Below, piece by piece: positions 7,524 to 28,790 of a DNA stretch of 38,217 bases. A model generated the notes under the pieces. That model was not told the origin of the DNA and made no database searches. It saw nothing but the letters and a program-made list of their open reading frames with translations. Each line of letters begins with the position of its first letter. Position 1 is the stretch's first letter. Source of the DNA: Myxococcales bacterium (GTDB lineage Bacteria; Myxococcota; Myxococcia; Myxococcales; 40CM-4-68-19); the NCBI GenBank assembly GCA_035655715.1, contig DASRTX010000170.1, positions 1-38,217 of the forward strand. The letters are read 5' to 3'. The position numbers and the translations under genes were made by a program.

Positions 7524-7548
7524 CCCCGACCTCCCCCGGCGCGCGTAG

Positions 7549-7564: not shown

Positions 7565-7632
7565 ATCCGAAGTGTCGGAAATCACATCGGTTGGGCAATG
7601 ATCTGGCGTGTAAAAGGGCACGGGGGCGGAAG

Positions 7633-7662: not shown

Positions 7663-7815
7663 CGGATCGCACCGGACGTTCCGCGACCTGGAAACGAAGG
7701 TGCACGGCGGCTTGCCTGCTGGAGTCCGGCCAGCGTCCGATCGCGACTCCATCCGCGGAAGCGCCCCGGAGCGACGCGGTACGTCGGGCAGGCGGAAGGC
7801 GAAATCGCTTCCCAG

Positions 7816-8223: not shown

Positions 8224-8293
8224 GCCCCCGCCCTCCTGTTCGGGACGCCGGCTCCGCCGCAGGGGCGGAGCCGGGTCCGTCTCTCCCGTCCGC

Positions 8294-10005: not shown

Positions 10006-10048
10006 GTCAGTCGATGCTCCTGTGGTTTCGGGGGACTCCCGAGCGATC

Positions 10049-10064
10049 AGCAAGCTGCAGGCCA
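10049..10064 (-). promoter_or_regulatory. Candidate sigma-54 promoter for the cupredoxin-MCO operon
   Basis: Minus strand reads TGGCCT-GCAGC-TTGCT. The GC lies about 45 nt upstream of the ATG at 10005. Confidence 0.5.
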
Positions 10065-10250
10065 ACGATCCCGGGGAGGCCAGGTAGATCTTCGCGCAAG
10101 CCCTGCGCGCGGCGCGGCCGGCTCGCCGCAGCCGCGCGCAACTTTTGCGGGGCGCGGGGCACGGAGCCGGGCGCATCGATTGCACCGGGCGCAGGGATTT
10201 CCCGATCCCCGTTGCGGAGCCCGGCGCGTTGCCGGTACGTTCTGCGCGAC

Positions 10251-14636: not shown

Positions 14637-16028
14637 TCACGCGTCGGGTTCGTGGTTCCCCGCGCCGGCCGGGACCTCGCCCGAGTATTCCTTGAGCCGG
14701 TACTGGATCTTGCGGATCGAGATGCCGAGCATCTCGGCGGCCTTGGCGCTGGATCCTCCCACCAACTCCATCGTCCGGAGAATCGCCTCCCGCTCGATCT
14801 CCGCCATCGTCGCGCCCGGGATCAGGCTAGCCGCGTCGCGCCCGGCGGGCCGCGGCCCCTGCAGCGTGGGCGGCAGGTCGTCGGCGGTCAGCTCGCGCGA
14901 CTTGCAGAGCACCACCGCCCGCTCGACGGCGTTCTCCAACTCGCGCACGTTGCCGGGCCAGTCGTAGCCGAGCAGCGCGTTGAGCGTGCCGGGCGCCAGG
15001 CCCTTCACCTGCTTGCCGTAGCTGGAGGCGTACTTCTCCACGAAGTGGCTGACCAGCGCGGGGATGTCGCCCTTGCGCCGGCGCAGCGGGGGCAGCGTCA
15101 CCGCCACCACGTTGAGGCGATAGAAGAGATCCTCGCGGAAGCGGCCCGCCTTCACCTCCGCGGCCAGATCGCGGTTGGTGGCCGCCACCAGGCGCACGTT
15201 TACTGTAAGGCTCTGCGTGCCGCCCACCCGCTCGAACTCGCGGGTCTGCAGCACGCGCAGGAGCTTCACCTGGGTGGAAAGGCTGATCTCGCCGATCTCG
15301 TCGAGGAAGAGCGTGCCGCCGTCGGCCAGCTCGAAACGGCCTTCCCTGCGGCCCGCCGCGCCGGTGAAGGAGCCCTTCTCGTGGCCGAACAGCTCTGACT
15401 CGAGCAGCGTCTCGGAGAGGGCCGCGCAGCTCACCTTGACGAAGGGCTTGTCGCTGCGGTCGCTCTCCTCGTGCACGGCCTGCGCGATCAGCTCCTTGCC
15501 GGTGCCGGACTCTCCCAGGACGAGCATGGTGGCGCGCGTGGGTGCCGCCTGCTTCACCACCTGGTAGACGGCCTGCAGCTCGGGCGCCTCGCCCACCATG
15601 CCGGTGAGCTTGTACCGGTCGCGCACGCGCTCGCGCAGCGCCTGCGACTCGCGCAGAAGCCTGCGCTTCTCCACGGCCTTCTGGAGGAAGACCAGGACCG
15701 AGTTCACGTCCAGGGGCTTGACCAGGTAGTTCTCGGCGCCCGCCCGCATCGCCTCCACCGCCGCTTCGACGGTGGCAAAAGCGGTCATCATGATGAAGAC
15801 GGCGTCGCTGCCCCGCTCCTTCGCCTTGCGCAGGAGCGCGAGGCCGTCCATGCGCGGCATCCGTACGTCCGCCAGCACCACCGCCGGCGCGAACTCCTCC
15901 ATCCGCGAGAGCGCGACCTCGCCGTCCTCCGCCTCGGCGATCTCGTACCCCTCCTCGCCCAGGATGAGGCGCAGCGCGGAGCGGGCGTTGGGCTCGTCGT
16001 CGACGACGAGGACGCGTTCCTTGGCCAT
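14637..16028 (-). CDS. Sigma-54-dependent response regulator (NtrC family: REC, AAA+, Fis-type HTH), copy 1
   Basis: REC D54 (ADVRMP). Walker A GESGTGKE. GSFTGA loop variant, ESELFGHEKG, WPGNVRELEN. C-terminal HTH AAEMLGISIRKIQYRLKE. Confidence 0.92.
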   Translation of the reverse strand: MAKERVLVVDDEPNARSALRLILGEEGYEIAEAEDGEVALSRMEEFAPAVVLADVRMPRMDGLALLRKAKERGSDAVFIMMTAFATVEAAVEAMRAGAENYLVKPLDVNSVLVFLQKAVEKRRLLRESQALRERVRDRYKLTGMVGEAPELQAVYQVVKQAAPTRATMLVLGESGTGKELIAQAVHEESDRSDKPFVKVSCAALSETLLESELFGHEKGSFTGAAGRREGRFELADGGTLFLDEIGEISLSTQVKLLRVLQTREFERVGGTQSLTVNVRLVAATNRDLAAEVKAGRFREDLFYRLNVVAVTLPPLRRRKGDIPALVSHFVEKYASSYGKQVKGLAPGTLNALLGYDWPGNVRELENAVERAVVLCKSRELTADDLPPTLQGPRPAGRDAASLIPGATMAEIEREAILRTMELVGGSSAKAAEMLGISIRKIQYRLKEYSGEVPAGAGNHEPDA

Positions 16029-16087: not shown

Positions 16088-16534
16088 TCATGCGTCGCTC
16101 GCGTCGAGCTGGAGGACGTCGTCGCGCAGCACGCGCGCGCCCAGGAGATCCCGATCCTCCGCGTCCATGTCGGCGAGGATGTCGTCGAGGAGTCCGAGCA
16201 CCCGACGCGCCAGCAGCGACGGGGAAAGGACGCCCCGATCCGACCGCAGCACCGCCAGGACGGCGCGCTGGTGCGCATGCTCGGCGCGCATCAGATCCAG
16301 TCGCACCGGCCCCCAGGCGTCGATCTTCTCCAAGACAGGTCCCAGAAGCGCCTCCTCGGTGGCGAGGTGCTTCTCCATCTGCTCGTGGAGGTCGCCCACG
16401 AGGTTGCGCAGCGCACCGGGAGGTCCGCCCTCCGCTTCGAGCGTATCGCCTGCCGTGTCGCGAACGCGGGCGATGAGCGCGCGGAGCCCGCGGTGCTGCG
16501 TCTCGAGGATCTGCCGGCGCTCTTCGTGATTCAT
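16088..16534 (-). CDS. Hemerythrin-like (HHE cation-binding) domain protein
   Basis: 148 aa starting from the ATG at 16534 with GGGAGG upstream. Helical His/Glu pattern HR..., HEQMEKHLATEE, EHAHQR. The assignment is from pattern only. Confidence 0.55.
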   Translation of the reverse strand: MNHEERRQILETQHRGLRALIARVRDTAGDTLEAEGGPPGALRNLVGDLHEQMEKHLATEEALLGPVLEKIDAWGPVRLDLMRAEHAHQRAVLAVLRSDRGVLSPSLLARRVLGLLDDILADMDAEDRDLLGARVLRDDVLQLDASDA

Positions 16535-16559
16535 CTGTGCCTCCCTCGCAGGGGGTAGG

Positions 16560-16575
16560 TGCAAGGCGCGCGCCG
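16560..16575 (-). promoter_or_regulatory. Candidate sigma-54 promoter for the hemerythrin-like / EBP1 operon
   Basis: Minus strand reads CGGCGC-GCGCC-TTGCA with correct spacing. It lies about 27 nt upstream of the ATG at 16534. Confidence 0.35.
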
Positions 16576-16603
16576 CTGCAGTGCTCGCCGCTCACCCCGG
16601 GGC

Positions 16604-16619
16604 AGGCGCAGGAATTGCG
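16604..16619 (+). promoter_or_regulatory. Candidate sigma-54 promoter A for the OFOR operon (overlaps palindrome copy 16606..16620)
   Basis: AGGCGC-AGGAA-TTGCG with correct GG/GC spacing. Confidence 0.35.
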
Positions 16620-16620
16620 C
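16606..16620. promoter_or_regulatory. Palindromic motif copy GCGCAGGAATTGCGC
   Basis: In the divergent hemerythrin/OFOR intergenic region. Matches the other two copies at 13 of 15 positions. Confidence 0.5.
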
Positions 16621-16684
16621 CCGGCAGTCATCTCCCTGCTCGAAATTGCGCGCCGGCGAGAGCGCGCCGCGTCCTCGATGCGCA

Positions 16685-16700
16685 TGGCATGCGCCGTGCT
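16685..16700 (+). promoter_or_regulatory. Candidate sigma-54 promoter B for the OFOR operon
   Basis: TGGCAT-GCGCC-GTGCT. It lies only about 14 nt before the ATG at 16714, which would imply a near-leaderless mRNA. Confidence 0.35.
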
Positions 16701-16713
16701 CCGTGCGCATTCC

Positions 16714-17685
16714 ATGACCTCACGCGCGCAGGCATTGAAGGAGCGGCTGGCCCGCGGAGACTCCATCGACCTGCGCGGGTACGGCAAGGCCGGCGGCGGA
16801 CTCATGCTCGCGGTCCAGGCGTTCGCCGCGGCGCTGGCCAAGGTGCCGGAGCTGGACGTACAGGACTGGCCCCTGTTCTCCAGCGCCCGCAAGGGCGCCA
16901 CGGTCTGCGCGTACCTCCGCGTCGCGCGAGGCAAGGTGGAGCAGTCGAGCGCCGTCTCCGAGCCCGACGTGGCGGTGCTGATGAACGAAGCCGCCGCAGA
17001 AGACGCGGACTTCGCCGAGGGCACCAAGGACGCGCTCTACGTGGTGAACACGTGGCATTCGCCGGAGATGGCCGCGGGGCGTTACCGGCTGGGCGGCACG
17101 GTGGTGACCATCGCCGGCGACGACCTGGGCCGCAAGTACCTGAACCGCCCGCTGGCCAACGTCGCGGTGCTGGCTGCGCTGGTGCGCACCACCGGGCTGG
17201 TGGAGCCGGTGGCAGCGCGCGCCTCGCTGGAGTCGCGCCTGGTCAAACGGCGGCTGCCGCGTCGCATCGTCGACGCCAACCTGGCCATGTTCGACACCTC
17301 GCTGGAACAGATGCGCGTCGGCCAGTTTCCCCCCGCCGGGCACCCGCGCAAGCCGTTCACCGGCTACGGCAGGCTGCCTGCGGGCGCGCAGAGCGCGCTG
17401 CGCACCTCGGTGCACAACCGCACCTCGGGATATGGCCGCCCCGGCGTGAAGGTGGAGTTCGCCGATCCGCTCTCGAAGTGCAACGGGTGCTCGCTCTGCG
17501 TGGTGCAGTGCCCCGAGGGCATCATCCAGTTCGACGCCGATCCCGCCCGGGGAACGCTGGTGCACGGCGCGCGATTCGCCGACTTCTGCAAGGTCTGCCG
17601 CGAGTGCGTGACGGCCTGCCCGCTCGATCTCTTCAAGGAGCTCGTCGCATCGACCCGGCCCGAGGGTCATCCGGTGGAGGCGTAG
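16714..17685 (+). CDS. 2-oxoacid:ferredoxin oxidoreductase gamma subunit fused to a delta-type 2x[4Fe-4S] ferredoxin domain
   Basis: PorG-like N-terminus (RGYGKAGGGLMLA...PDVAVLMN...VVN). C-terminal CNGCSLCVVQCP and CKVCRECVTACP motifs. The start is uncertain: ATG at 16714 has no obvious SD, and alternatives are 16678 and 16537. Confidence 0.75.
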   Translation: MTSRAQALKERLARGDSIDLRGYGKAGGGLMLAVQAFAAALAKVPELDVQDWPLFSSARKGATVCAYLRVARGKVEQSSAVSEPDVAVLMNEAAAEDADFAEGTKDALYVVNTWHSPEMAAGRYRLGGTVVTIAGDDLGRKYLNRPLANVAVLAALVRTTGLVEPVAARASLESRLVKRRLPRRIVDANLAMFDTSLEQMRVGQFPPAGHPRKPFTGYGRLPAGAQSALRTSVHNRTSGYGRPGVKVEFADPLSKCNGCSLCVVQCPEGIIQFDADPARGTLVHGARFADFCKVCRECVTACPLDLFKELVASTRPEGHPVEA

Positions 17686-19002
17686 ATGCAGATCGTGGGG
17701 ACGTACGGCGCCAGGTACGAGAACGCCATCGATCTCTCCGCGCTGCGCGGCGCGCACCAGCCGCAGTACGCCGCGCGGACCGAGATCGCGGTCGACGGGA
17801 ACACGGCGGCCGCCATTCCCTTCTTGCAGTGGTGGCGCGCCCCGATCATGGCCGGCTTCCCCATCACGCCCTCCACCAAGTGGCTGGAGCACCTGGCGGC
17901 CGTGGTGGGAGCGGGCAAGTGCGGCAAGGCCAAGCGCGTCAAGCTGCTCGAGGCGGAACACGCCGCTGCCGACTACCTGGTGGGAATGGCCGGGTCGTGC
18001 CGCGAGCTGATCGCCGGCACCGCCACCAGCTCGGTGGGCCTGGACCACATGACCGAGACGGTCCGTTCGCTGGGCGCCTCGGGCCTGGGCAACGTGATGA
18101 TCGTCAACGTCTGCCGCGCCACCGCCAACTACCCGCTCTGCATCGAGGGAGATCCGAGCGATCACTTCGCCCACCGCGACGACGGCTTCATCCAGGTGAT
18201 GTGCCGCGGCAAGCAGCAGATCTACGACACCATCTTGCAGCTCCCCGCGGTGGGGATGAACCCGCGCGTGCTCACGCCCACCATGCCGGGCTTCTTCGGC
18301 ATCAAGGACAGCCACCGCAGCGGCAAGCTGGTGGTCGAGCCTGACGAGGCGGTGAACTCGTTCCTGGACGAGGCGCTGGCCTCCACCGAGCCCACGCCGC
18401 CCGGACTCCTCGACGGCGACACCAGCATGGGCAGCTGCGTGACCAGCGCGTACTTCCAGGGCTTCAAGGTGGGGCAGAAGGCGCGCCTGCAGGCGGCGTT
18501 GGACGTCATCCCCAGGGTGGCCGGGCTGTTCGAAAAGCGGTTCGGCAGGCGCGGGATCGAGCTCTTCGAGCAGTTCGCCATGGAGGACGCCGAGGTGGCG
18601 CTGGTCTGCCTGGGCCCCGACGCGGGCACCGCGGTGCAGCAGCTTCCCCGGATGCGCGACGAGCTGAAGGCGCGGGTCGGCTTGATCGTGCTCCGCGTGC
18701 TCACACCGTTTCCCTCGGTGGCGCTGGCGCGCGCGCTGCGCAAAGTGAACGCCGTCGGCGTGGTCCAGCACGCCTATCACCATGGGCGCGGACACATCGC
18801 GCTGGATCTCGCCGACGCGCTGGCCGAGTCGGGTCGGCTTCTGCCCACCGAGTCCTTCTTCTGCGGCCTGGGCGGTGCGGACGTCTCGCCCTCCACCTGG
18901 CGCGAGATGGCTCGCCTGACCGTGAGCTGCGCCATGCGGGGCAAGCCGTCGCGAAGGTGGCACCTCTTGCACGAGGGCCACGAGCTCTCGGAGGAGAACT
19001 GA
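17686..19002 (+). CDS. 2-oxoacid:ferredoxin oxidoreductase alpha subunit
   Basis: VDGNTAAA...GFPITPSTKWLEHL corresponds to the PorA/KorA N-terminal GNEA...YPITPS block. The ATG directly abuts the upstream TAG. Confidence 0.85.
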   Translation: MQIVGTYGARYENAIDLSALRGAHQPQYAARTEIAVDGNTAAAIPFLQWWRAPIMAGFPITPSTKWLEHLAAVVGAGKCGKAKRVKLLEAEHAAADYLVGMAGSCRELIAGTATSSVGLDHMTETVRSLGASGLGNVMIVNVCRATANYPLCIEGDPSDHFAHRDDGFIQVMCRGKQQIYDTILQLPAVGMNPRVLTPTMPGFFGIKDSHRSGKLVVEPDEAVNSFLDEALASTEPTPPGLLDGDTSMGSCVTSAYFQGFKVGQKARLQAALDVIPRVAGLFEKRFGRRGIELFEQFAMEDAEVALVCLGPDAGTAVQQLPRMRDELKARVGLIVLRVLTPFPSVALARALRKVNAVGVVQHAYHHGRGHIALDLADALAESGRLLPTESFFCGLGGADVSPSTWREMARLTVSCAMRGKPSRRWHLLHEGHELSEEN

Positions 19003-19003
19003 G

Positions 19004-20008
19004 ATGGCCCGCGCGCTCCCCACCTTCAAGTCGCACGCCCAGCGCGACGACGCCTTCCTCGAGGGACACACGCTCTGCCCCGGCTGCACCGAGGCGGTGG
19101 CCTTCCACGAGATCGGCCGGGCCACCGACAACGGGCGCAAGACCCTGGTTGCCCTCGGCACCTTCTGCGGCGAAGTCTCCACCCTGCTGTACCCCAACGT
19201 GATCTCCTGGGGCCGCGGCAAGCGCGAGCCGGCCGAGGTGGAGAAGTCGGTCGGCATCATCCACAACGTCTTCGAGAGCGCGCCCACGGTGGCCGAGGCG
19301 ATGAGCGACACCGCCCGCGTGCTGGCCGACGTGGGAGCATGGAAGGGCCCGCAGCCCAACGTGATCTCGGTCTCCGGCGACGGCGGCGCGCTCAGCATCG
19401 GCCTGCGCTCGCTCCTGCACTCCATCCACCGGCGCGCGCGCGTCACCGTGGTGGTCTACATCAACGAGGTGTTCGCCAACACCGGCTTCCAGTACAGCCC
19501 CACTTCGCTGCCCTTCGCCGACAGCTCCACGCTGCCGCACGGCGGAGCGGCCGAGCCCATCGATCACATCGGGCTCGCCATCGTGGCCGGCGCCGGCTAC
19601 GTGGCGCAGGCCACCACCGGCTACGCGCCGTTCTTCGCCGAGTGCGTGGAGGAGGCGCTGGCAGCGGAGGGGACCTCGGTGATCTTCGTGCCTGCTCCCT
19701 GCATCACCGGCTGGAAGTTCGAGGAAGGGCTCACGGCCGAACTGGGGCGGTTGGGGTCGCAGACGGGACTCTTCCCCTGCTTCCGGAAGAAGCGCGGCGA
19801 GCCCGGGCAGATCAAGCACGTGCCGGAGAAGGCAAAGCGGCCGGGCGTGGAGCAGTTCCTGGTGGGCCAGCAGCGGTTCGAGCACGTGGTACGCGCGGTG
19901 GACGGAAAGCCGCAGATCGTGCCGGGCCGCGAGTCCGATGTCGCGGCGCTGCAGTCGTACGCGGACCGGAACGTGGAGCGGCTGGAGAAGCTGGCGTTGT
20001 TCCCCTGA
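19004..20008 (+). CDS. 2-oxoacid:ferredoxin oxidoreductase beta subunit (TPP and [4Fe-4S] binding)
   Basis: CPGCTEAVAF cluster motif and GDGGALSIGLRSL...NEVFANTG TPP-binding block. The start is 1 nt after the alpha stop. Confidence 0.88.
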   Translation: MARALPTFKSHAQRDDAFLEGHTLCPGCTEAVAFHEIGRATDNGRKTLVALGTFCGEVSTLLYPNVISWGRGKREPAEVEKSVGIIHNVFESAPTVAEAMSDTARVLADVGAWKGPQPNVISVSGDGGALSIGLRSLLHSIHRRARVTVVVYINEVFANTGFQYSPTSLPFADSSTLPHGGAAEPIDHIGLAIVAGAGYVAQATTGYAPFFAECVEEALAAEGTSVIFVPAPCITGWKFEEGLTAELGRLGSQTGLFPCFRKKRGEPGQIKHVPEKAKRPGVEQFLVGQQRFEHVVRAVDGKPQIVPGRESDVAALQSYADRNVERLEKLALFP

Positions 20009-20016
20009 GTGCCGGT

Positions 20017-20796
20017 CTATCCTCGCCGCTCCCTCGGTAGCCAGGCCAGCCCCGAGTCCGTCGCGCCGGCCGGCTTGTACTCGAGCCCCACCGCGCCCTG
20101 ATATCCGCCGGCATCCAGATCGTTCAGGAATTCCGCAATCGGCTGCGTCCCGCTGCCGGGCTCATGCCTTCCCGGCACGTCCGCGACCTGCACGTGCGCC
20201 ACCAGCGCGCGGTGCTTGCGCAGCGCCTCGCGCGGGTCCACGCCCATCATGCCGGCGTGGTACTGATCGAGCTGCAGCCGCACCGCCGCGGAGCCCGCCG
20301 CGCGCACCAGCGAGGCGGCGATGTCCGGGGTGGCGGCGTAGTAGCCCGGCATGTCCACCGTGTTGATCGCCTCCACCAGCAGCTGCATGCCGGCCCGCTC
20401 GATCAGCGGCGCCGCCGCGCGCAGGTTCGCAATCGCCGTCTTCTCCGCCTGCGCGGGCGATGTTCCCTTGGGAATGCCGGCCAGCGCATTGAGCTTTCGC
20501 GTCCCGAAGCGCTGCGCGAGAGCGATGGCCTCGCGCACACTGTCCAGGAACTCGTCCTCCCGACCGGGCAGCGAGAGCAAACCGCGCTCGCCGCCTCCCC
20601 AGTTCCCCGGCCGCGGATCGAAGAGCACCAGCTCGAGCTTCAGGTCGCGCAGCGTCTTCTCCAGCAGCGCCGGATCGAGCTCGTGCGCGAAGAGGATCTC
20701 CACGCGCGTGAAACCCGCCTCGGCCGCGGCGCGGAACCGATCCAGCTGCGGCAGGTCGGGCCAGAGCAGCGTCATGTTGGCGGCGAAGCGCGGCAT
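20017..20796 (-). CDS. hyi: Hydroxypyruvate isomerase (TIM-barrel, xylose-isomerase-like)
   Basis: MPRFAANMTLLW... is the characteristic Hyi N-terminus, together with VEAIN and LEYKP. The ATG overlaps the upstream stop (ATGA). The 560-aa six-frame ORF is this gene plus an out-of-frame run through the next gene. Confidence 0.85.
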   Translation of the reverse strand: MPRFAANMTLLWPDLPQLDRFRAAAEAGFTRVEILFAHELDPALLEKTLRDLKLELVLFDPRPGNWGGGERGLLSLPGREDEFLDSVREAIALAQRFGTRKLNALAGIPKGTSPAQAEKTAIANLRAAAPLIERAGMQLLVEAINTVDMPGYYAATPDIAASLVRAAGSAAVRLQLDQYHAGMMGVDPREALRKHRALVAHVQVADVPGRHEPGSGTQPIAEFLNDLDAGGYQGAVGLEYKPAGATDSGLAWLPRERRG

Positions 20797-21671
20797 CAGG
20801 CCACCTCGGTTCCGGCGGCCTCTTCCCAGAGCCGCACCAGCGCCGCCATGTCCTGGTCGCCCAGCCCGCGCGACTTCGCCTCCAGGAAGCGCTGCTCGGC
20901 CAGGGCCCCGAGCAAGAGCGGCACCCCGGCGCCCTTGGCCTGGTCGTGGATCAACCCCAGGTCCTTGAGGATCAGGGTCATCGGCGTGGCGGGCGAGAAG
21001 TCGCGCGAGATGAACCGCGGCATGTGGCGGGTCATCATCGTCGAGCCGCCGTAGGAGGTGCCGATCACTTCCAGCACCGTCTTCGCGTCCGCGCCGAGCT
21101 TGGCGCCGAACACCGCCGCCTCGGCGATGGCCGCGGTGTGCACTCCCACCAACAGCTGGTTGACGAGCTTCACCACCTGGCCCGCGCCCGGTCCTCCGCA
21201 CAGCCGGATGTTCTTGCCGAAGGCCTGGAAGATCGGCAGCGCGCGGTCGAAGGCGGCCTGATCGCCTCCCACCATCACGGTCAGCGTTCCCGACTGGGCG
21301 CCCATCGGGCCGCCCGAGACCGGCGCGTCGAGGAAGGCGGCGCCGCGCCCCGCCAACAGCTCGCGCGTGCCGCGGCTCTGCTCCACGCTGACGGTGGAGT
21401 GGTCGGCGAAGAGCGATCCCTTGCGAGCGGCGGCCGCCAGCTCCCGATAGACCTCGTCGACCGAGGCGGGCGTGGGCAGCGCGGTCAGCACCACGTCGGC
21501 GCGCTGGGCCACCTCGCCCGCCGACCCGGCGCGCTTCGCTCCCCGGGACACGAGCGCGTCCACGGCCGCCGGAGACCGGTTGTGCACGTGCACGGTGAAC
21601 CCCGCCGCAAGCAGCCGCTCCACCATGGGCCGACCCATCTTGCCGAGCCCGACGAACCCGATCTGCTCCAT
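20796..21671 (-). CDS. NAD(P)-dependent beta-hydroxyacid dehydrogenase (2-hydroxy-3-oxopropionate / 3-hydroxyisobutyrate reductase family)
   Basis: GFVGLGKMGRPM Rossmann motif and DAPVSGG. Coupling to hyi suggests tartronate-semialdehyde reductase. Confidence 0.85.
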   Translation of the reverse strand: MEQIGFVGLGKMGRPMVERLLAAGFTVHVHNRSPAAVDALVSRGAKRAGSAGEVAQRADVVLTALPTPASVDEVYRELAAAARKGSLFADHSTVSVEQSRGTRELLAGRGAAFLDAPVSGGPMGAQSGTLTVMVGGDQAAFDRALPIFQAFGKNIRLCGGPGAGQVVKLVNQLLVGVHTAAIAEAAVFGAKLGADAKTVLEVIGTSYGGSTMMTRHMPRFISRDFSPATPMTLILKDLGLIHDQAKGAGVPLLLGALAEQRFLEAKSRGLGDQDMAALVRLWEEAAGTEVA

Positions 21672-21718
21672 GCCGCCTCCTCGCGGACGGGGATATCACG
21701 GCGGCAGGCGGCCGCGCC

Positions 21719-22066
21719 TCACGCCGCCAAATCTGCCGTCGAGTCGGATGCTCGCAGACCGATGCTGGCGCAGATCTCCTCGAACTCGATGCGGAAGCCG
21801 TCGGCGTTTCGGTGCGCCGCGCCGCCCAGCTCGACCGCCTCGACCGTCACGCGGGCCCAGACGCGCTTGTGCGAGGTGGAGAAGGCGATGACACACCCCG
21901 CGAAGAGGAAGAAGCAGGGATACTTCACCTGCCAGTAGATCCGGGGCAGGCGCTCGATCGAGCAGGCGATCAGGTTCAACGCCAGCGAAAGCAACAGCCG
22001 CCATGGCGAGGAAGAGCACGAGCAGGTTGGTCAGCGTCAGCTTCAGCGGAAGATCCGGTCGACCAT
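21719..22066 (-). pseudogene. ResB/CcsB-like remnant downstream of ccsA (frame-disrupted); includes the 91-codon high-GC3 ORF 21719..21994
   Basis: ATG at 22066 overlaps the ccsA TGA. After 7 codons (MVDRIFR) there are three in-frame TGAs. The neighbouring frame reads LKLTLTNLLVLFLAMA. The original frame then resumes with SPWRLLLSLALNLIACSIERLPRIYW, which resembles ResB/Ccs1 signature segments. Confidence 0.4.
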
Positions 22067-23502
22067 CACCCCGCTCCGTAGCTGTGCAGGCCGTCGCCGG
22101 TGAGGCCCAGGTTCACCCCCATGAAGGTGAAGATCACCACCGCGAAGGCGGCCACGGCGATGGCGGCGGTGCGCTTGCCCGTCCACCCCAGCGTGATGCG
22201 CGTGTGCAGGTAGCCGGCGTAGACGATCCAGGTGATCAGCGCCCAGGTCTCCTTGGGATCCCAGCCCCAGAAGCGGCCCCACGCCTCGTTGGCCCACACG
22301 CCGCCCATCACGATGCCGACGCCGAGCAGCGGCCAGGCGGCGATCACCGTCTTGTAGGTCACGTCCTCCAGGCGGCGTGCGTCGGGCAAGAGCGCCTCGA
22401 TGCGCGGGCGCCACTGCGCGGTGATGAGGAAGCCCAGGGTGGTGCCCCAGAGCAGTGCGACCAGCCCCAGAGCGTAGTTGGAGGCGATGCCGAAGAAGTA
22501 GGGCCCAGGCTCCATCGGCTGGACGCCGGCTGGGAGCTCCACGCCGGTGGAGGAGGCGATCTGTGCCAGCAGCACGCCGATGCCAGCGGTGAGCGCGAAG
22601 AAGGCGGCCAACGTCACGCGGAAGCCGGTCTTCTCGCGGCCCTTGAGCGAGTACACCGCTGCCGCCGCGGCGAAGAGCACCAACGCAGCGAGCAGGAAGG
22701 GGCCCACGCCCGGCACCGGCAGGAGGAGCTTGAACTGCTTTCCGGTGCCGGGGTCGAGCTGGTGCACCGCGGAGACCACGTCGAGGAACTTCCCGGGCCG
22801 CAGCTGCGAGGGAACTTGATGGAGGAACGAGGGCGCCATCTCGAAGCGCCCGCCGAAGAGCAGGGAGGAGCCGCCCACCATGGCGAGCAGCACCGCCACC
22901 ACCGCGGCCTGCGCGCGGCCCAGCACGGCGTTCGCGGTTCCCGAGCGCACCAGGAAGAGCAGCGCCGCCGCCGCGCCCAGCGTGAAGAGGGCGTAGGAGA
23001 CGAAGAGCATGGCCACGTGGATGAGGATCCAGTAGCTCTGCAGCGCCGGCACCAGCGGCTCGATGCCCTGGTCGCTGACCAGCATGGACTCGCCCATGGC
23101 CACCAGCGCCACCGCCGCCGCCAGCGCGCCCAGCACCTGGAGAGCGAACTTCCGCTGGATCACCAGCCAGCAGATCATCATCGCCCAGGCGGTGAAGTTG
23201 AGCGCGTCGAAGAGGTTGGTGAATGGCGGGTGGGAGATCATGTACCAGGCGCGGTCCATCGCCGTCAGCACGTCGCCCGTCCGCTCGCGGGCGATGATCT
23301 CCACCTGGCCCGCGGCGATCCAACGCGATGCCAGGTAGGCGGTGTGGGCCGCCACCCCCAGGAGGGCCAGGGTGCTCGCGGCCTTCTTCAGCAGGCGGCG
23401 ATCGACGGCCAGCGACGACGCGTATCCGGCGAATGCGCCCGCGTACGCAAAGGCCGCGGCGACGCGGAGCCCGACACCAAGCTGCAGCAGATCCTCGAAC
23501 AC
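22066..23502 (-). CDS. ccsA: Cytochrome c biogenesis heme lyase CcsA/ResC (system II)
   Basis: WWD motif WGRFWGWDPKETWALITW plus a conserved downstream His (YLH). Polytopic. GTG start at 23502 with GGAGG 7 nt upstream. Confidence 0.85.
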   Translation of the reverse strand: MFEDLLQLGVGLRVAAAFAYAGAFAGYASSLAVDRRLLKKAASTLALLGVAAHTAYLASRWIAAGQVEIIARERTGDVLTAMDRAWYMISHPPFTNLFDALNFTAWAMMICWLVIQRKFALQVLGALAAAVALVAMGESMLVSDQGIEPLVPALQSYWILIHVAMLFVSYALFTLGAAAALLFLVRSGTANAVLGRAQAAVVAVLLAMVGGSSLLFGGRFEMAPSFLHQVPSQLRPGKFLDVVSAVHQLDPGTGKQFKLLLPVPGVGPFLLAALVLFAAAAAVYSLKGREKTGFRVTLAAFFALTAGIGVLLAQIASSTGVELPAGVQPMEPGPYFFGIASNYALGLVALLWGTTLGFLITAQWRPRIEALLPDARRLEDVTYKTVIAAWPLLGVGIVMGGVWANEAWGRFWGWDPKETWALITWIVYAGYLHTRITLGWTGKRTAAIAVAAFAVVIFTFMGVNLGLTGDGLHSYGAG

Positions 23503-23607
23503 GGTGGACCTCCGGGAGTTGCCGTCCCTGCAGAGCAAGGCCGGGGCCAGCGCGAAAACCCTGCGTACTCCGCCTTGGCGCGCAAACGGCGGAGGCGGCT
23601 CTGTCCT

Positions 23608-23623
23608 TGGTGCCGAACCTGCA
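23608..23623 (+). promoter_or_regulatory. Candidate sigma-54 promoter for EBP2 (ntrC-like copy 2)
   Basis: TGGTGC-CGAAC-CTGCA. It lies about 137 nt upstream of the ATG at 23760. Confidence 0.45.
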
Positions 23624-23700
23624 ATGAAGGAGTGCCAGGGGCGAAAGCGCTGCTGGAAGTGCGCAGCGCGTGCGTCGGGCGGGCAAGCGGCGCGAGGCCT

Positions 23701-23715
23701 GCGCAAGGATTGCGC
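23701..23715. promoter_or_regulatory. Palindromic motif copy GCGCAAGGATTGCGC (6-3-6 perfect arms)
   Basis: In the divergent ccsA/EBP2 intergenic region. With flanks it reads TGCGCAAGGATTGCGCGG. Confidence 0.6.
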
Positions 23716-23759
23716 GGGGGGTGCCGGCGGACGGCACGGATGTGACGGAGGTTCACCAT

Positions 23760-25163
23760 ATGGGTACGAAGCAGCGGATCCTGATCGTCGACGACGAGCA
23801 GAACGCGCGGACGGCGCTCCGGACCCTTCTGGGCGAAGAAGGGTACGAGATCGCCGAGGCGGCAGACGGCGAGGAGGCGCTCTCGAAGATCGCGGAGCTG
23901 GATCCCGAGGTGGTCCTCACCGACATGCGGATGCCGAAGATGGACGGCATCACGCTGATCAAGAAGGCGCGCGAGTCGGGCAGCGAAGCGGCCTTCGTGA
24001 TGATGACCGCCTACGCCTCGGTCGAGGCCGCGGTGGACGCGATGAAGGCGGGCGCCGAGAACTACCTGATCAAGCCGCTGAACCTCCAGGCGGTGCTGGT
24101 CTTCCTGGAAAAAGCGCTGGAGAAGCGGAGCCTGCAACGCGAGACCGTGTCCCTGCGCGACCGCGTCCGCGAGCAGTACCGCCTGGAGGGCCTGGTGGGC
24201 GACGCGCCCGAGCTGCGGGCGGTCTACGAGGTGGTGCGGCAGGCAGCCTCCACCAAGGCCACCGTGCTGGTGCTTGGCGAGTCGGGCACCGGCAAGGAGA
24301 TCATCGCCCACGCGCTGCACGAGGAGAGCCCGCGACGCGACCAGCCCTTCGTCAAGGTGTCCTGCGCGGCGCTGTCGGAGACACTGCTCGAGTCCGAGCT
24401 GTTCGGCCATGAGCGCGGGTCGTTCACCGGCGCCCTCGGCCGCAAGGAGGGCCGCTTCGAGCTGGGCGACGGCGGCACCCTCTTCCTCGACGAGATCGGC
24501 GAGATCTCGCCGGCGACGCAGGTCAAGCTGCTGCGCGTGCTGCAGACCCGCGAGTTCGAGCGGGTGGGCGGCACGCAGACCCTCAAGGTGGACGTGCGGC
24601 TGGTGGCGGCGACCAACCGCGACCTCGTCGCCGAGGTGAAGGCGGGGAGGTTCCGCGAGGATCTCTACTACCGCCTCAACGTGGTGGCGGTCACGCTGCC
24701 GCCGCTGCGCCGCCGCAAGGGCGACCTGCCGGCGCTGTCCTGGCACTTCATCGAGAAGTACGCGCGCCTCTACGGCAAGGACGTGCACAGGCTGGGCGAG
24801 GGCACGCTCAACGCGCTCTTGGCGCACGACTGGCCCGGCAACGTGCGAGAGCTGGAGAACGCCATCGAGTGCGCGGTGGTGCTGGCCCAGACCCAGGAGA
24901 TCACCCCCGAGGACCTGCCCTGTTGGCTGCGCGGCTCGCGTCCGAACCGGGGCGAGGCCGGATCGCTCATCCCGGGCGGCACGCTCTACGAGATCGAGCG
25001 CGAGGCCATCCTGCGCACGCTCGAGTTGGTGGGCGGCTCCACCTCCCGCGCGGCAGATCTGTTGAAGATCTCGGCGCGGAAGATCCAGTATCGGCTGAAG
25101 GAGTACGCGCAGACGGAGCAGCAGGGGCTGCGGCCGCAAGAGGCCGCGCCGGCAGCGAACTGA
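23760..25163 (+). CDS. Sigma-54-dependent response regulator (NtrC family), copy 2, paralog of 14637..16028
   Basis: Same architecture and motifs as copy 1 (TDMRMP, GESGTGKE, GSFTGA, WPGNVRELEN, HTH). GGAGG precedes the ATG at 23760. Confidence 0.92.
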   Translation: MGTKQRILIVDDEQNARTALRTLLGEEGYEIAEAADGEEALSKIAELDPEVVLTDMRMPKMDGITLIKKARESGSEAAFVMMTAYASVEAAVDAMKAGAENYLIKPLNLQAVLVFLEKALEKRSLQRETVSLRDRVREQYRLEGLVGDAPELRAVYEVVRQAASTKATVLVLGESGTGKEIIAHALHEESPRRDQPFVKVSCAALSETLLESELFGHERGSFTGALGRKEGRFELGDGGTLFLDEIGEISPATQVKLLRVLQTREFERVGGTQTLKVDVRLVAATNRDLVAEVKAGRFREDLYYRLNVVAVTLPPLRRRKGDLPALSWHFIEKYARLYGKDVHRLGEGTLNALLAHDWPGNVRELENAIECAVVLAQTQEITPEDLPCWLRGSRPNRGEAGSLIPGGTLYEIEREAILRTLELVGGSTSRAADLLKISARKIQYRLKEYAQTEQQGLRPQEAAPAAN

Positions 25164-25174
25164 GAGGCACCGCA

Positions 25175-25417
25175 CTAGCCGTCGATCGGCAGGGACCTCA
25201 CCAAGCTGACGCGACGCTCCTCGGGCTCGACCACGTACCAGAACCGCCAGCCAGCCAGGTCCAGGTGCAGCTTGAGCCCCCGCACCGAGTTCCAGAACAT
25301 GCTTCCCAGGGGCATGGTCGCGACGGCGGCCGCGATTTCCTGGAGAGAGGCCGAAAGGCTGCTCCTCGTGTCCTCGGGGACCCCCTCGGCCGCGGTCCCC
25401 ACCACCACGGTGAACAT
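25175..25417 (-). CDS. Small hypothetical protein (80 aa) with a weak RelE/ParE-like C-terminal pattern
   Basis: High GC3 throughout. The C-terminal GWRFWYVVEPEERRVSLVRSL resembles the (G)yRiiYrv...v.vl.v strand pair of RelE/ParE toxins. No SD and no partner gene. Confidence 0.4.
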   Translation of the reverse strand: MFTVVVGTAAEGVPEDTRSSLSASLQEIAAAVATMPLGSMFWNSVRGLKLHLDLAGWRFWYVVEPEERRVSLVRSLPIDG

Positions 25418-25425
25418 GGGAGCCC

Positions 25426-25453
25426 AGCATATAGGACTTTAGTTGATGGTCAA
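25426..25453 (-). promoter_or_regulatory. Sigma-70-like promoter (TTGACC, 16 nt spacer, TATGCT) 8 nt upstream of the small-ORF ATG
   Basis: The minus strand of an AT-rich 67-bp gap reads TTGACCatcaactaaagtcctaTATGCTgggctcccATG. This would give a leaderless or near-leaderless transcript. Confidence 0.35.
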
Positions 25454-25484
25454 ATCATTTCAGGGGGTCCCGCCGCCGGCTCCC

Positions 25485-26837
25485 TCAGACGGCCCTCGAG
25501 AAGCTCCGCGCCCCGTGCTCGAGGTACGCGTCGAAGACGCAGGCCACATTGCGGACGAAGATGCGGCCCAGCGGCGTCAGCTCGATCTCGCTGCCGCGGA
25601 CGGCCACCAGCCCTTCCGCTTCCAGTGCGCGCAGCCGCAGCAACTCGCGCTCCCAGCCCTGGGTCGTGCCCAGATCCACCCAGGAATTGCACATGATGGA
25701 GTTGATGACGGCACGGCGGCGCCGGTCGTCGTCGTTACAACGGAAGCCGCGCTCGGTGGCGAGCTTTCCCTCGGCGACGGCCGCGTGGTACCGGGGCAGG
25801 CCGCGCGCATTCTGGGCATAGATGCCGCTCACGTCGCTGATGGCGGAGGCGCCTACCGCGATCACGTCGCCCGCCGCCTTGACGGTATAGCCCTGGAAGT
25901 TGCGGGTCAGGGTTCGCTTCGCCTGCGCTTTGCCCAGGTCGTCCTCGGGCAGCGCGAAGTGGTCCATGCCGATGGGCCGGTAGCCCGCCGCCGTGAACGC
26001 CTCCCAGGCGGTGCGGAACAGGTCCAGCTTCTGCGCTCCGCGCGGGATGCCCGCCACCGGCAGCCGCTTCTGGTTGGTGCGCTGATCGGGAACGTAGGCG
26101 AACCCGTAGACCGCGGCGCGATCGGGCCGCATGGCGACCACCTGCGCCAGCGTCCGCTTCCAGCTCTCCTGCGTCTGGCAGGGAAGCCCATAGATGAGGT
26201 CGACGTTGATCCCGGCGAACCCGAGCGAGCGCGCGTACTCCAGCACGCCGCGCGTCTCCTCCTCGGTCTGGATGCGGTCGATGGCCTTCTGCACCGTCGG
26301 ATCCAGGTCCTGCACACCGAGCGAGATGCGGTTGAACCCGAACGAGCGCAACAGCGCCAGCTGTCCGCGGGTGGTGACCACGGGATCCACCTCGACGGCT
26401 ACCTCCGCGTCGGGCAGCACGTGGAAGCGGCGGGTGATGGCCGACCAGAGCGTGGTCAGCTGCGCCTCGTCGAGGAAGGTGGGCGTGCCGCCGCCGAAGT
26501 GGACCTGCGAGAGGAAGCGCCGCTCTCCGAGCAGCTGGGAGACCTGGTCCATCTCGCGCGCCAGCATCGCCAGGTACCTGTCGGCGGTGTTCTGGCTGCG
26601 CGCGATCACCACGTTGCACCCACAAAAAGTACACCGCTCCTTGCAGAAAGGGATGTGCACGTAGAGCGAGAGCGGAGCCGCCGGCCCCTTGGCGCCTGCG
26701 GCCTGGAGCGCCGCGGCATGGTCGGCCGGGCCGATGCTCTCGGTCCATTCCGGCGCGGTGGGGTAGCTCGTGTAGCGCGGCGCCGGGACGTCGTAGCGCC
26801 GGACCAGGTCCTCGGTCACGGGCGGAAAGGCGGACAT
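25485..26837 (-). CDS. hemN: Oxygen-independent coproporphyrinogen III oxidase (radical SAM, HemN)
   Basis: 450 aa starting from the ATG at 26837. YVHIPFCKERCTFCGC is a CxxxCxxC radical-SAM motif. The N-terminus RYDVPAPRYTSYPTA is typical of HemN. Confidence 0.92.
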   Translation of the reverse strand: MSAFPPVTEDLVRRYDVPAPRYTSYPTAPEWTESIGPADHAAALQAAGAKGPAAPLSLYVHIPFCKERCTFCGCNVVIARSQNTADRYLAMLAREMDQVSQLLGERRFLSQVHFGGGTPTFLDEAQLTTLWSAITRRFHVLPDAEVAVEVDPVVTTRGQLALLRSFGFNRISLGVQDLDPTVQKAIDRIQTEEETRGVLEYARSLGFAGINVDLIYGLPCQTQESWKRTLAQVVAMRPDRAAVYGFAYVPDQRTNQKRLPVAGIPRGAQKLDLFRTAWEAFTAAGYRPIGMDHFALPEDDLGKAQAKRTLTRNFQGYTVKAAGDVIAVGASAISDVSGIYAQNARGLPRYHAAVAEGKLATERGFRCNDDDRRRRAVINSIMCNSWVDLGTTQGWERELLRLRALEAEGLVAVRGSEIELTPLGRIFVRNVACVFDAYLEHGARSFSRAV

Positions 26838-26868
26838 GCGCGAAGCTCGCTTCACGAAGCGTGCCGGG

Positions 26869-26884
26869 TGGAATGGGCCTTGCT
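26869..26884 (+). promoter_or_regulatory. Candidate sigma-54 promoter for hemY
   Basis: TGGAAT-GGGCC-TTGCT. It lies about 78 nt upstream of the ATG at 26962. Confidence 0.45.
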
Positions 26885-26933
26885 GGACGTGCGCACACGC
26901 GCGGGGTGCAGGAGGTGCGCGCGGCGAGCAGGT

Positions 26934-26948
26934 GCGCAAGAATTGCGC
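26934..26948. promoter_or_regulatory. Palindromic motif copy GCGCAAGAATTGCGC (6-3-6 perfect arms)
   Basis: In the divergent hemN/hemY intergenic region, abutting the hemY SD. With flanks it reads TGCGCAAGAATTGCGCGG. Confidence 0.6.
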
Positions 26949-26961
26949 GGAAGGAGCCTCG

Positions 26962-28224
26962 ATGCGGGTGGCGGTCATCGGCGGGGGTGTGGCGGGGCTC
27001 TCGGCGGCCCACGAGCTGTTGCGGCGGGGCGCCGATCCCGTGGTCTTCGAGGCCGAGGAGCGCGCGGGCGGAAAGGTGGGCACGCGCGCCGAACGGGGCT
27101 GGGTGACGGAGGACGGCCCGAACTTCCTGGCCCGTCCGCTGGACGCGCTGCTCGATGCGAGCGGATTGCGCGGCGAGGTGGTGAAGCCGCGCCCTCCCAC
27201 CACGCGCTGGGTGCACCTCCAGGGCCGCGTGCTCAAGGCGCCGAGCCTGGGACTGCTTGCGCGCGCCGGCGCGTTCCGCGCGCTTCTCGAGCCGCTCTTC
27301 GCCCGGCCGCTGCGCGAGGACGTGTCGCTGCGCAGCTTCCTCGAGGCGCGCCTGGGCAGGAAGGCCGGCGGGCTCGCCGCCACGCTGATGAGCGCGGGGG
27401 TGTACGCAGGCGATCCCTCGCTGCTCTCCGCTCGTGACGCGTTCCCCACCTTGGGGGAGTTGGGAGCGAAAGGCTCGCTGATCGTCAACGCCTTCCGGCG
27501 CCCCAAGGCAGCGCCGCGCACCGGTCTTTGGACGCTCCGGCGTGGGCTCGGGACGCTGGTGGAGGCGGTCTCGGCGCGGCTGGCCGGCAGCGTGCGCCTG
27601 GGCGCGCGCATCACGCAGCTGGCGCCGGCGGCGCGCGGCTGGGACGTGCAGGGCGAGCGGTTCGATGCGGTGGTGCTGGCGGTTCCCGCCGCGGCAGCGG
27701 CCGCGATCGCGCGGCCGTTCGCGGCGCGCTTCGCGGAGGTCGCAGGCGCGTTCCACAGCGCGCCGGTGACGGTGGTGCACCTCGGCTTTGCACAGGAAGG
27801 GCTGCCGCGCGGGTTCGGGATGCTGGACGCCGACGGAACGCTCCACGGCATCGGCACCCTGCTCCCCAGCAGCATGCTGCCCGGGCGCGCGCCGGAGGGA
27901 CGCGCGCTGGTGACGGTCATCTGCGGCGGCGCAAAGCATCCGGACCGGGCGGCGCTGCCCGACGGCGAGCTCGTCCCAGGCATCCTGGGCGATCTCTCGC
28001 GCACCTGGGCCGTGAAGGCGCAGGTCGAATATGTGCGCGTGGTGCGTTGGGGCGCGGCCATTCCGCAGTACGCGCCGGGCCACCGCGAGGCGGTGCGCGC
28101 CGCACGCGAGTCGCTCGCGGGTCTCCCGCCCATCGAGGTGGCCGGCGCCTCGTGGGACGGTGTGGGAGTCCCCGATGTGGCCCGGTCCGGCGCGGTGGCC
28201 GCGGCGCGGCTGGCGCCGGCCTGA
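26962..28224 (+). CDS. hemY: FAD-dependent protoporphyrinogen/coproporphyrinogen oxidase (HemY/PPOX family)
   Basis: MRVAVIGGGVAGLSAA dinucleotide fold, EAEERAGGK, and the C-terminal GASWDGVGVPD block. GGAAGGAG precedes the ATG at 26962. Confidence 0.85.
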   Translation: MRVAVIGGGVAGLSAAHELLRRGADPVVFEAEERAGGKVGTRAERGWVTEDGPNFLARPLDALLDASGLRGEVVKPRPPTTRWVHLQGRVLKAPSLGLLARAGAFRALLEPLFARPLREDVSLRSFLEARLGRKAGGLAATLMSAGVYAGDPSLLSARDAFPTLGELGAKGSLIVNAFRRPKAAPRTGLWTLRRGLGTLVEAVSARLAGSVRLGARITQLAPAARGWDVQGERFDAVVLAVPAAAAAAIARPFAARFAEVAGAFHSAPVTVVHLGFAQEGLPRGFGMLDADGTLHGIGTLLPSSMLPGRAPEGRALVTVICGGAKHPDRAALPDGELVPGILGDLSRTWAVKAQVEYVRVVRWGAAIPQYAPGHREAVRAARESLAGLPPIEVAGASWDGVGVPDVARSGAVAAARLAPA

Positions 28225-28314
28225 GATGCAAAGGTTGCGACCCGGCGCGGGCCGGCGCGGGCTGCGGGCGGCGGCATCGTTCTTGAAGTGCCTTGGATCC
28301 GTGGAGGCACGCCG

Positions 28315-28683: not shown

Positions 28684-28790
28684 AGCGCGCAGGTCTTGCG
28701 CCGGAAGCAGATTTCTCCTCCCTCCTCCGCCCCGCCGCCCTCGATCGGTCGGCGGCGCAGTGTTGCGATGTCCGCCTTTTCAAGTCGCAG

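Follow-up and report, generated by a model that had tools for sequence, protein, structure and literature searches.

A recurrent palindrome at heme and redox promoters of an uncultured soil myxobacterium matches the NmpR box and is very probably an enhancer site for NmpR-type sigma-54 activators

Which regulator reads a palindrome that recurs between divergently transcribed heme and redox genes? The question is raised by a contig of 38,217 nt (GenBank DASRTX010000170.1, assembly GCA_035655715.1; hereafter, the window) from a Myxococcales bacterium, in which the sequence GCGCARGRATTGCGC occurs exactly three times, starting at positions 16606 (site 1), 23701 (site 2) and 26934 (site 3), always on the + strand, to which its AAGRATT centre belongs. 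An original prediction, made from the letters of the window, had taken this motif for a shared cis-site that ties together hemN (O2-independent coproporphyrinogen oxidase), ccsA (cytochrome c biogenesis), an O2-sensitive oxidoreductase, hemerythrin and a globin-coupled O2 sensor, under an unidentified regulator and with no resemblance to a described box. The shared site was upheld, while the second part has to be given up: the motif matches the published consensus of the NmpR box, and two NmpR-like activators are encoded next to the sites. We conclude that the palindromes are very probably enhancer (upstream activating) sites for an NmpR-type, NtrC-family sigma-54 activator, because they match a consensus validated by DNA binding and reporter assays; because six perfect boxes occur in excess, all of them in non-coding DNA; because the window has genes for two such activators as well as for a protoglobin kinase, a receiver protein and a hybrid kinase; because the boxes and promoters of hemN, ccsA and the oxidoreductase/hemerythrin pair are conserved in relatives; because hemN, hemerythrin, the nmpR operon, the nmpU operon and a CBS protein are common to the Myxococcus xanthus regulon and the window; and because the recognition helix of the activators is invariant, or nearly so, across paralogs and orthologs. 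We infer, further, binding of these boxes by the window's own two activators, the assignment of each box to a promoter, and the direction in which the genes respond to O2.

In M. xanthus, the NmpR box GCGCA-N5-TGCGC was defined by electrophoretic mobility shift assays with mutated sites and by lacZ reporters, the activation of which depends on the box as well as on the sigma-54 site (McAllister et al. 2025, J Bacteriol 207:e00280-24, PMC11841059). The sites are paired, 5–50 nt and mostly 14–15 nt apart, and the core GCA-N5-TGC is perfect in every bound site (PMC11841059). The oxygen-utilisation system to which they belong, NmpRSTU, has also been described by Bretl et al. (2018, PLoS Genet, PMC6211767). 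NmpU is a protoglobin and heme-dependent kinase, NmpS a hybrid receiver-kinase under reciprocal control by NmpU, NmpT a receiver-only phosphate sink, and NmpR an NtrC-like sigma-54 activator (PMC6211767, PMC11841059). The M. xanthus regulon includes the operon of a CBS protein and nmpR, nmpU-T-S, a Usp gene, an operon for a P-type ATPase and cbb3 oxidase, hemN with hemerythrin, and pilR; the hemN and nmpU promoters are NmpR targets, and the hemN promoter is bound by NmpR (PMC11841059). The genes under Nmp control in Anaeromyxobacter are unknown (PMC11841059).

Since the window has a G+C content of 69%, genes were called by third-position GC together with Pfam matches. With these calls, which agree with the gene identities given in the original prediction, the three exact copies are all non-coding and situated between divergent genes, that is, hemerythrin and the oxidoreductase, ccsA and the second activator, and hemN and hemY. 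The expected count of GCGCARGRATTGCGC is 0, and it was matched in none of 100 dinucleotide-preserving shuffles of the window. Direct comparison of the last two copies (23701 and 26934) gives 17 identical positions out of 18 over TGCGCAAGRATTGCGCGG, as had been noted. The motif corresponds to the published NmpR box plus one additional conserved base in each arm. Perfect boxes of the published form number six (10094, 16606, 16680, 23701, 26934 and 28687) against 0.49 expected, an approximately 12-fold excess that was reached in none of 100 shuffles. All six are non-coding, the non-coding share of positions 1–29300 being 12.9% of bases (P ~5e-6), and five of them are spread over four divergent intergenic regions. 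The comparison with a shuffled background that had been put forward as a check is, within the window, in favour of the palindrome.

Matches with one mismatch to the same consensus occur 27 times against 11.3 expected. Within genes, they are near the chance rate; the five non-coding ones at 10136, 10171, 23661, 23690 and 26906 are partners adjoining perfect boxes. The GCA-N5-TGC core is intact in all six perfect boxes and in four of these five partners (it is broken in 23690). The degenerate copies listed earlier (10094, 10136, 10171 and 28687) read as described, while the perfect box at 16680–16694 and the partners at 23661, 23690 and 26906 had gone unreported. A at position 6 and T at position 10 are preferred (54% of 37 compiled sites), and strong sites lean to extended arms, GCGCAA-N3-TTGCGC.

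Pfam and PDB matches show that the window carries genes for a protoglobin kinase, a hybrid kinase and a receiver protein alongside those for NtrC-like activators (Table 1). The kinase aligns with the AfGcHK globin domain from residue 93 of its long open reading frame (ORF) onwards, from which we take ATG 10251 to be the true start; the three boxes near 10100 therefore lie upstream of the kinase gene, as originally predicted, and not inside it. The two activators, EBP1 and EBP2, are 72–74% identical to each other, and EBP1 shares 77% identity with an activator of Anaeromyxobacter paludicola whose gene adjoins protoglobin-kinase genes. Both paralogs have a counterpart in the relative L093: the L093 copy downstream of hemerythrin corresponds to EBP1 (84%), and the one near ccsA and hemN to EBP2 (88%). 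Since each has its own counterpart, the duplication of NmpR must be old. EBP1, EBP2 and all six orthologs compared, except EBPa of L093 (RKIQYRMKEY), have the same HTH_8 helix, RKIQYRLKEY, and both paralogs probably read the same box.

The module recurs elsewhere. In the A. paludicola locus (L089), one strand carries CBS, dksA/traR, radical-SAM and activator genes; the other carries genes with the domain sets of nmpS, nmpT and nmpU and a Usp gene, followed by a second CBS gene. The arrangement given for Anaeromyxobacter Fw109-5 is consistent with this order (PMC11841059). Box-like sites are present in L089 upstream of promoter-like blocks GGCACG-N4-NTGAA. Three further activator orthologs on long contigs (L090–L092) come with the same module in the same relative gene order and with intergenic boxes. 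In addition, L090 and L092 (at 6368–9869) have genes for a molybdopterin oxidoreductase and iron-sulfur subunits divergent from the NmpR ortholog, with boxes in between; different lineages seem to put different low-O2 respiratory enzymes under the NmpR-type activator.

Sigma-54 elements were scored in intergenic DNA only, against a 12-position consensus. In all four box-bearing regions, an element that fits 9–10 of the 12 positions lies between the boxes and the gene on the − strand (Table 1). The original prediction had considered only the + strand genes, but the strongest and most conserved sigma-54 promoters of all four regions face the − strand genes. Sigma-54-like promoters are found within the published limits, namely at most 500 nt from the sites and at most 400 nt from the start codon, in the orientation of the gene. 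The box centres would be located about 64–186 nt upstream of the predicted transcription starts; at the hemerythrin promoter, distances of approximately 65 and 139 nt separate the box centres from the predicted start, and hemN transcription would start approximately 3 nt ahead of its ATG at 26837. Several transcripts of the regulon appear to be nearly leaderless, starting 2–6 nt before the start codon, if standard promoter spacing is assumed. Sites accompany promoters orthologous to validated targets in the case of hemN, hemerythrin, both activator genes and the globin kinase. Paired sites are 5–50 nt apart in three of the four regions. Near site 1, a TTGCGC half-site (16637–16654, GAAATTGCGCGC) follows 16 nt past the box; its other half is off consensus, and it may be a weak partner site.

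On the + strand, sigma-54-like elements occur at 16685–16700 (facing the oxidoreductase), 23608–23623 and 23722–23737 (EBP2), and 26869–26884 (hemY), which include the two hexadecamers that had been placed upstream of sites 2 and 3. They are less secure than those on the − strand, because of an overlap with a box in one case and a poor −12 region in another, because the element at hemY loses its GG in the relative L009, and because the box itself partly mimics a promoter. The loose sigma-54 pattern TGG-N9-TGCW matches the window 40 times against 8.9 expected and was dropped as evidence, since most of its matches are inside genes and probably reflect codon usage. The stricter GGCAYG-N5-TGNW is not enriched over the whole window (two matches against 1.6 expected) and is informative solely through its conserved position upstream of hemN.

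Table 1. Boxes, sigma-54-like promoters and genes of the predicted NmpR-type regulon in the window
Feature	Position (strand)	Sequence	Remarks
Box, distal site (S1) of the hemN promoter; site 3	26934..26948	GCGCAAGAATTGCGC	perfect match
Partner box, proximal site (S2) of the hemN promoter	26906..26920	GTGCAGGAGGTGCGC	one mismatch; spacer to S1 13 nt
Sigma-54-like hemN promoter	26851..26866 (−)	CGGCACGCTTCGTGAA	region 26838-26961; −12 C absent; likely drives hemN
Box, site 2	23701..23715	GCGCAAGGATTGCGC	perfect match
Two boxes near site 2	23661-23675; 23690-23704	GCGCAGCGCGTGCGT; GCGCGAGGCCTGCGC	one mismatch each; 14 nt between; second overlaps site 2
Sigma-54 promoter of ccsA	23534..23549 (−)	TGGCCCCGGCCTTGCT	region 23503-23759; 10/12 consensus positions; likely drives ccsA
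Degenerate sigma-54-like element immediately before the second NmpR-like gene	23722..23737 (+)	CGGCACGGATGTGACG	tentative, because of its poor −12 region
Box, site 1	16606..16620	GCGCAGGAATTGCGC	perfect match
Second box, 7-bp arms	16680..16694	GCGCATGGCATGCGC	perfect match; overlaps sigma-54-like TGGCATGCGCCGTGCT at 16685-16700 (+)
Sigma-54-like promoter of the operon of hemerythrin and the first NmpR-like gene	16560..16575 (−)	CGGCGCGCGCCTTGCA	region 16535-16713; 10/12; likely drives hemerythrin + EBP1
Three boxes upstream of the globin-kinase operon	10094..10185		10094 perfect; 10136 and 10171 one mismatch each
Sigma-54-like promoter facing − strand genes	10049..10064 (−)	TGGCCTGCAGCTTGCT	region 10006-10250; 10/12; likely drives unknown protein, multicopper oxidase, possibly CBS protein
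Orphan box between convergent dksA-like and DoxX-like genes	28687..28701	GCGCAGGTCTTGCGC	perfect match
nmpU-like, protoglobin histidine kinase	10251-11393 (+)		Pfam; globin domain matches AfGcHK 5OHE, E 1.2e-53
nmpT-like, receiver protein between both kinases	11390-11925 (+)		Pfam
nmpS-like, receiver-HisKA-HATPase hybrid kinase	11926-13179 (+)		Pfam
First NmpR-like activator (EBP1)	14637-16028 (−)		Pfam; receiver, sigma-54 AAA+, HTH_8
Second NmpR-like activator (EBP2), paralog of EBP1	23760-25163 (+)		Pfam; receiver, sigma-54 AAA+, HTH_8
Hemerythrin	16088-16534 (−)		Pfam Hemerythrin, E 9e-13
2-oxoacid:ferredoxin oxidoreductase, three subunits	16714..20008 (+)		Pfam; candidate target
ccsA, cytochrome c biogenesis	22066-23502 (−)		Pfam; candidate target
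hemN, O2-independent coproporphyrinogen oxidase	25485-26837 (−)		Pfam; conserved NmpR target
hemY	26962-28224 (+)		Pfam
dksA-like gene	28288-28683 (+)

Are these sites conserved? The hemN protein of the window itself was recovered solely from soil-metagenome contigs. A scan of species-representative genomes, which places the window in Myxococcota, recovered hemN proteins 85% identical in a 'Deltaproteobacteria' metagenome-assembled genome (MAG), 67–69% in two other MAGs and approximately 58–61% in Myxococcus, Pyxidicoccus and Archangium. In most of the Myxococcota loci compared, a GCGCA(A)-N3/5-(T)TGCGC palindrome stands upstream of hemN, whether the neighbour is hemY or not. A perfect or near-perfect box occupies the place equivalent to S1 in L009, in M. 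xanthus (L012, GCGCAACCCCTGCGC), in two Myxococcaceae MAGs (L013, GCGCAAGTTTTGCGC; L014, GCGCAAGGATTGCGC), in Archangium (L016, GCGCAAGGGTTGCGC) and in a Myxococcales MAG (L019, GCGCAAATGTTGCGC). In these orthologous promoters, the arms GCGCA/TGCGC are constant and the centre is variable, with no compensatory changes in the arms. The S1/S2 pair is also kept, with a spacer of 13 nt in L009 and 15 nt in L011 and L012. Between the palindrome and the start of hemN, 30–50 nt upstream of the latter, a GGCAYG-N5-TG block with the −24/−12 geometry of sigma-54 promoters is present in L009–L014, L016, L019 and L020. M. xanthus serves as a positive control: the sole perfect box in its 21-kb hemN locus is the one upstream of hemN, with a second box 15 nt away. 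The footprinting check suggested for hemN is therefore borne out, since the box pair and the sigma-54-like promoter are both kept across Myxococcota.

The −12 part of the hemN promoters is unusual. A non-canonical element in which C is replaced (GGCACG-N4-GTGAA or TTGGAA) was found in the window (26851–26866, − strand) and at hemN of L009–L014, L016, L019 and L020; elsewhere, it occurs in L019 (2697–2711) and L089 (8842–8856 and 15310–15324). In several loci, an activator 74–79% identical to both EBP1 and EBP2 is located near hemN, with orthologs of the globin kinase and the hybrid kinase, and the hemN-adjacent activator genes of relatives have clear sigma-54 promoters with palindromes upstream.

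Two close relatives, L093 and L094, were obtained through their ccsA homologs. The ccsA promoter is conserved as TGGCCCCG-N-CCTTGCT, reading TGGCCCCGCCCTTGCT in L093 and TGGCCCCGACCTTGCT in L094, and upstream of it are the boxes GTGCAGGAATTGCGC in L093 and GCGCACCCTTTGCGC and GTGCACGAAATGCGC in L094. Alignment by eye matches the position of site 2 with an L093 box (GCGCACCTCTTGCGC, at 9261) before the orthologous activator gene, and the degenerate element at 23722..23737 with CGGCACAGGACTTGCG upstream of the same ortholog. In L095, the ccsA of which is 66% identical, neither boxes nor synteny were found, and control of ccsA therefore seems limited to the close relatives of the window; conservation upstream of ccsA, another footprint that had been called for, holds to this extent. 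The divergent arrangement of oxidoreductase and hemerythrin genes is kept in L094, where site 1 reads GCGCACGAATTGCGC and box 16680 is identical. Both perfect boxes, the TTGCGC half-site and both sigma-54-like elements (including the TTGCA block of the hemerythrin promoter) are retained there, and the intervening sequence has diverged. In L093, the ccsA, resB, PFOR, DHODH, hemerythrin and activator genes are all co-directional, and its Usp-hemN operon is preceded by a box pair (spacer 13 nt) and CGGCACGGTTCGTGAA.

Could something other than an NmpR-type activator account for the palindromes? Arms of 5–6 bp would suit many dimeric regulators, and the boxes at hemY and at the second activator gene lie 50–80 nt downstream of + strand sigma-54-like elements, so that a different DNA-binding protein, e.g., a repressor that blocks elongation from the elements at 23608 and 26869, might be imagined. 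We consider this improbable. NmpR binds the same consensus in vitro, the consensus is required for activation in vivo in M. xanthus, and the boxes accompany NmpR-like genes across Myxococcota; as for a roadblock, the boxes at hemN persist where its neighbour is not hemY, and in L009 the element on the hemY side has lost the invariant GG. The original prediction had offered a repressor roadblock or a hairpin in the 5′ untranslated region as possible modes of action, neither of which agrees with a box that is a sigma-54 activator site in M. xanthus, with constant arms around a variable centre, or with the position of the hemN boxes upstream of the promoter.

The hairpin deserves a closer look, as the 21-mers have folding energies of −7 to −13 kcal/mol, the end of site 3 falls just before the ribosome-binding site of hemY, 14 nt ahead of the ATG, and box 28687 comes after a stop codon; a palindrome at the 5′ or 3′ end of an mRNA could affect its stability, translation or termination. 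Folding does not discriminate, however, because the hairpins are stable on both strands. There is no match to an Rfam family and no T-tract terminator at 28687, and the boxes of hemN, ccsA and hemerythrin are upstream of the promoter and would hence be outside the mRNA. Compensatory pairing, presence in the transcript or membership of a known family, any of which would mark a structured RNA, did not emerge, and arms that are kept around a variable centre, free of compensatory changes, indicate recognition of the sequence by a protein. A role as RNA is accordingly very unlikely, somewhat more so than another DNA-binding protein. Least probable of all is that the copies are a dispersed repetitive (REP-like) palindrome or recur by chance. 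Short GC-rich palindromes are common in high-GC genomes, and the one-mismatch matches in genes fit chance; nevertheless, the excess of perfect boxes and their confinement to non-coding DNA, their constant vicinity to sigma-54-like promoters of one functional gene set and, in genomes with a hemN protein just 58–69% identical, their orthologous positions tell otherwise. We regard this explanation as excluded on the grounds of positional conservation and statistics.

Some observations do weigh against NmpR-type enhancer sites. M. xanthus NmpR was absent among the best 120 matches, and the orthology of the activators to this protein (MXAN_4240) is supported indirectly, by synteny and by the Anaeromyxobacter homolog named in PMC11841059. 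The spacing preferred in M. xanthus is just approximated, with 13 nt at hemN, 14 nt in one pair at ccsA/second activator, and 27 and 20 nt at the kinase operon; the perfect boxes between hemerythrin and oxidoreductase are 59 nt apart, and only the conserved half-site is close (16 nt) to the first. Some predicted sigma-54 promoters (hemN, second activator gene) miss the canonical GC at −12, and near-leaderless transcripts such as those predicted count on the same side. The box resembles part of a sigma-54 promoter (GGCGCA...TTGC), and some promoter calls that overlap boxes may therefore be spurious. At hemY and the second activator gene, the strongest + strand elements are found on the upstream side of the boxes, and the one at hemY, as said, is not kept in L009. 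Lastly, box 28687 is located between convergent genes, with no obvious promoter; since DoxX and dksA/traR-like genes recur in the NmpR loci of other genomes (L089–L092), this box may be a relic or a distant enhancer.

Set beside the M. xanthus NmpRSTU system, the window has the same consensus, several sites per promoter and adjoining sigma-54 promoters, as well as the same set of protoglobin kinase, receiver protein, hybrid kinase and NtrC-like activator. Targets in common are hemN, hemerythrin, the activator's own operon and the kinase operon; a CBS gene is present, and Usp adjoins boxes in relatives. The window differs in having two activator paralogs, one clear receiver domain in its receiver protein (M. 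xanthus has two), hemerythrin linked to an activator gene and not to hemN, less regular box spacing, and strong sites with extended arms. It further offers ccsA, the ferredoxin oxidoreductase, the multicopper-oxidase operon and perhaps hemY-dksA as candidate extra targets. The architecture of the globin kinase is that of AfGcHK from Anaeromyxobacter sp. Fw109-5 (PDB 5OHE), and L089 has both module and boxes, so that the window and its relatives suggest what the Nmp targets of Anaeromyxobacter may be.

Classical NtrC enhancers (TGCACC-N5-GGTGCA) are likewise clustered dyads of approximately 15–17 bp, roughly 50–190 nt upstream of −24/−12 promoters, and are bound by activators of the same receiver, AAA+ and Fis-type helix-turn-helix build; they differ in the sequence of the half-site and in the signal, which is nitrogen status for NtrC and O2, through a heme kinase relay, for NmpR. 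The usual O2- or NO-responsive control of hemN is by FNR/CRP-family and NnrR/Dnr boxes (TTGAT-N4-ATCAA type), which also serve hemN and respiratory genes induced at low O2 but belong to another protein family and to sigma-70 type promoters. The half-sites in the window, GCGCA...TGCGC, are in the reversed order, and no FNR/CRP or NnrR/Dnr-type box was found at its box sites.

The neighbourhood of the boxes holds further genes. Downstream of the promoter at 10049–10064 (−), which faces the boxes at 10094–10185, a CBS-domain gene, a multicopper oxidase and a secreted-looking unknown protein (7816–10005, −) may form a further NmpR-controlled operon; the nmpR operon of M. xanthus is headed by a CBS protein (PMC11841059). 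For ccsA, the start of the long ORF at 23706, which would overlap the motif, was rejected in favour of GTG 23502, where there is a GGAGG ribosome-binding site. The gene after ccsA (21719–22019, −) is a 100-residue ResB remnant: in a tblastn search with the 447-residue ResB of L094, only residues 82–99 and 380–441 align to the window, and an internal deletion seems to have taken most of resB in this genome. In L093 and L094, ccsA has a divergent neighbour, a small gene for a cbb3-type cytochrome c that is served by a sigma-54 promoter of its own. No trace of that gene was found in the window by tblastn; the + strand element at 23608–23623 may be its leftover promoter. After hemN, an 80-residue ORF (25175–25417, −) with no Pfam match has a counterpart in L093, 49% identical over 72 residues, and is found on every contig of the same species, which suggests a small conserved protein of the hemN neighbourhood.

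How the circuit might work is suggested by analogy with M. xanthus NmpRSTU. The NmpU-like heme/protoglobin kinase would be active with O2 bound and would reciprocally control the NmpS-like hybrid kinase, with the NmpT-like receiver as a phosphate sink. As O2 falls, the hybrid kinase would phosphorylate NmpR, dimers of which would bind the GCGCA-N5-TGCGC boxes, usually two or three per promoter, oligomerise and spend ATP to open the nearby sigma-54 promoters. The most likely targets are hemN, the operon of hemerythrin and the first NmpR-like gene, ccsA, the second NmpR-like gene, the nmpUTS-like operon and the multicopper-oxidase operon; the divergent ferredoxin oxidoreductase would probably be controlled along with these, and hemY possibly so.

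Taken together, these elements allow a wider picture that we put forward tentatively, as a possibility more likely wrong than right in its entirety. The NmpR circuit would have been duplicated and widened in this lineage, with two old paralogs of unchanged helix sharing one box, and its regulon would have moved from better use of scarce O2 towards a low-O2/anaerobic switch by adding ccsA, a ferredoxin-dependent 2-oxoacid oxidoreductase and possibly hemY-dksA. The boxes at hemY and at the second activator gene would perhaps lie in the 5′ leader and act downstream of the promoter, and promoters of the hemN type would combine an unusual −12 lacking C with near-leaderless mRNAs.

The box and the regulon have already been described, and the window is a new instance of them in an uncultured soil myxobacterium. 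What is new is modest: the pair of paralogs, the candidate extra targets, the bias towards A and T at positions 6 and 10, respectively, and the recurrent non-canonical −12 of hemN-type promoters. The recognition of the palindrome as the NmpR box published in 2025 removes a false lead, that of an undescribed motif. NmpR is, moreover, seen to be duplicated in one lineage. None of these findings alters the understanding of such systems. The longer consensus GCGCAA-N3-TTGCGC could sharpen the prediction of the regulon, and ccsA, the ferredoxin oxidoreductase, the multicopper-oxidase operon and the activator-adjacent genes in relatives are supplied as testable candidate targets. An experimentally defined O2-response regulon of myxobacteria is thereby extended to uncultured soil Myxococcota and to Anaeromyxobacter.

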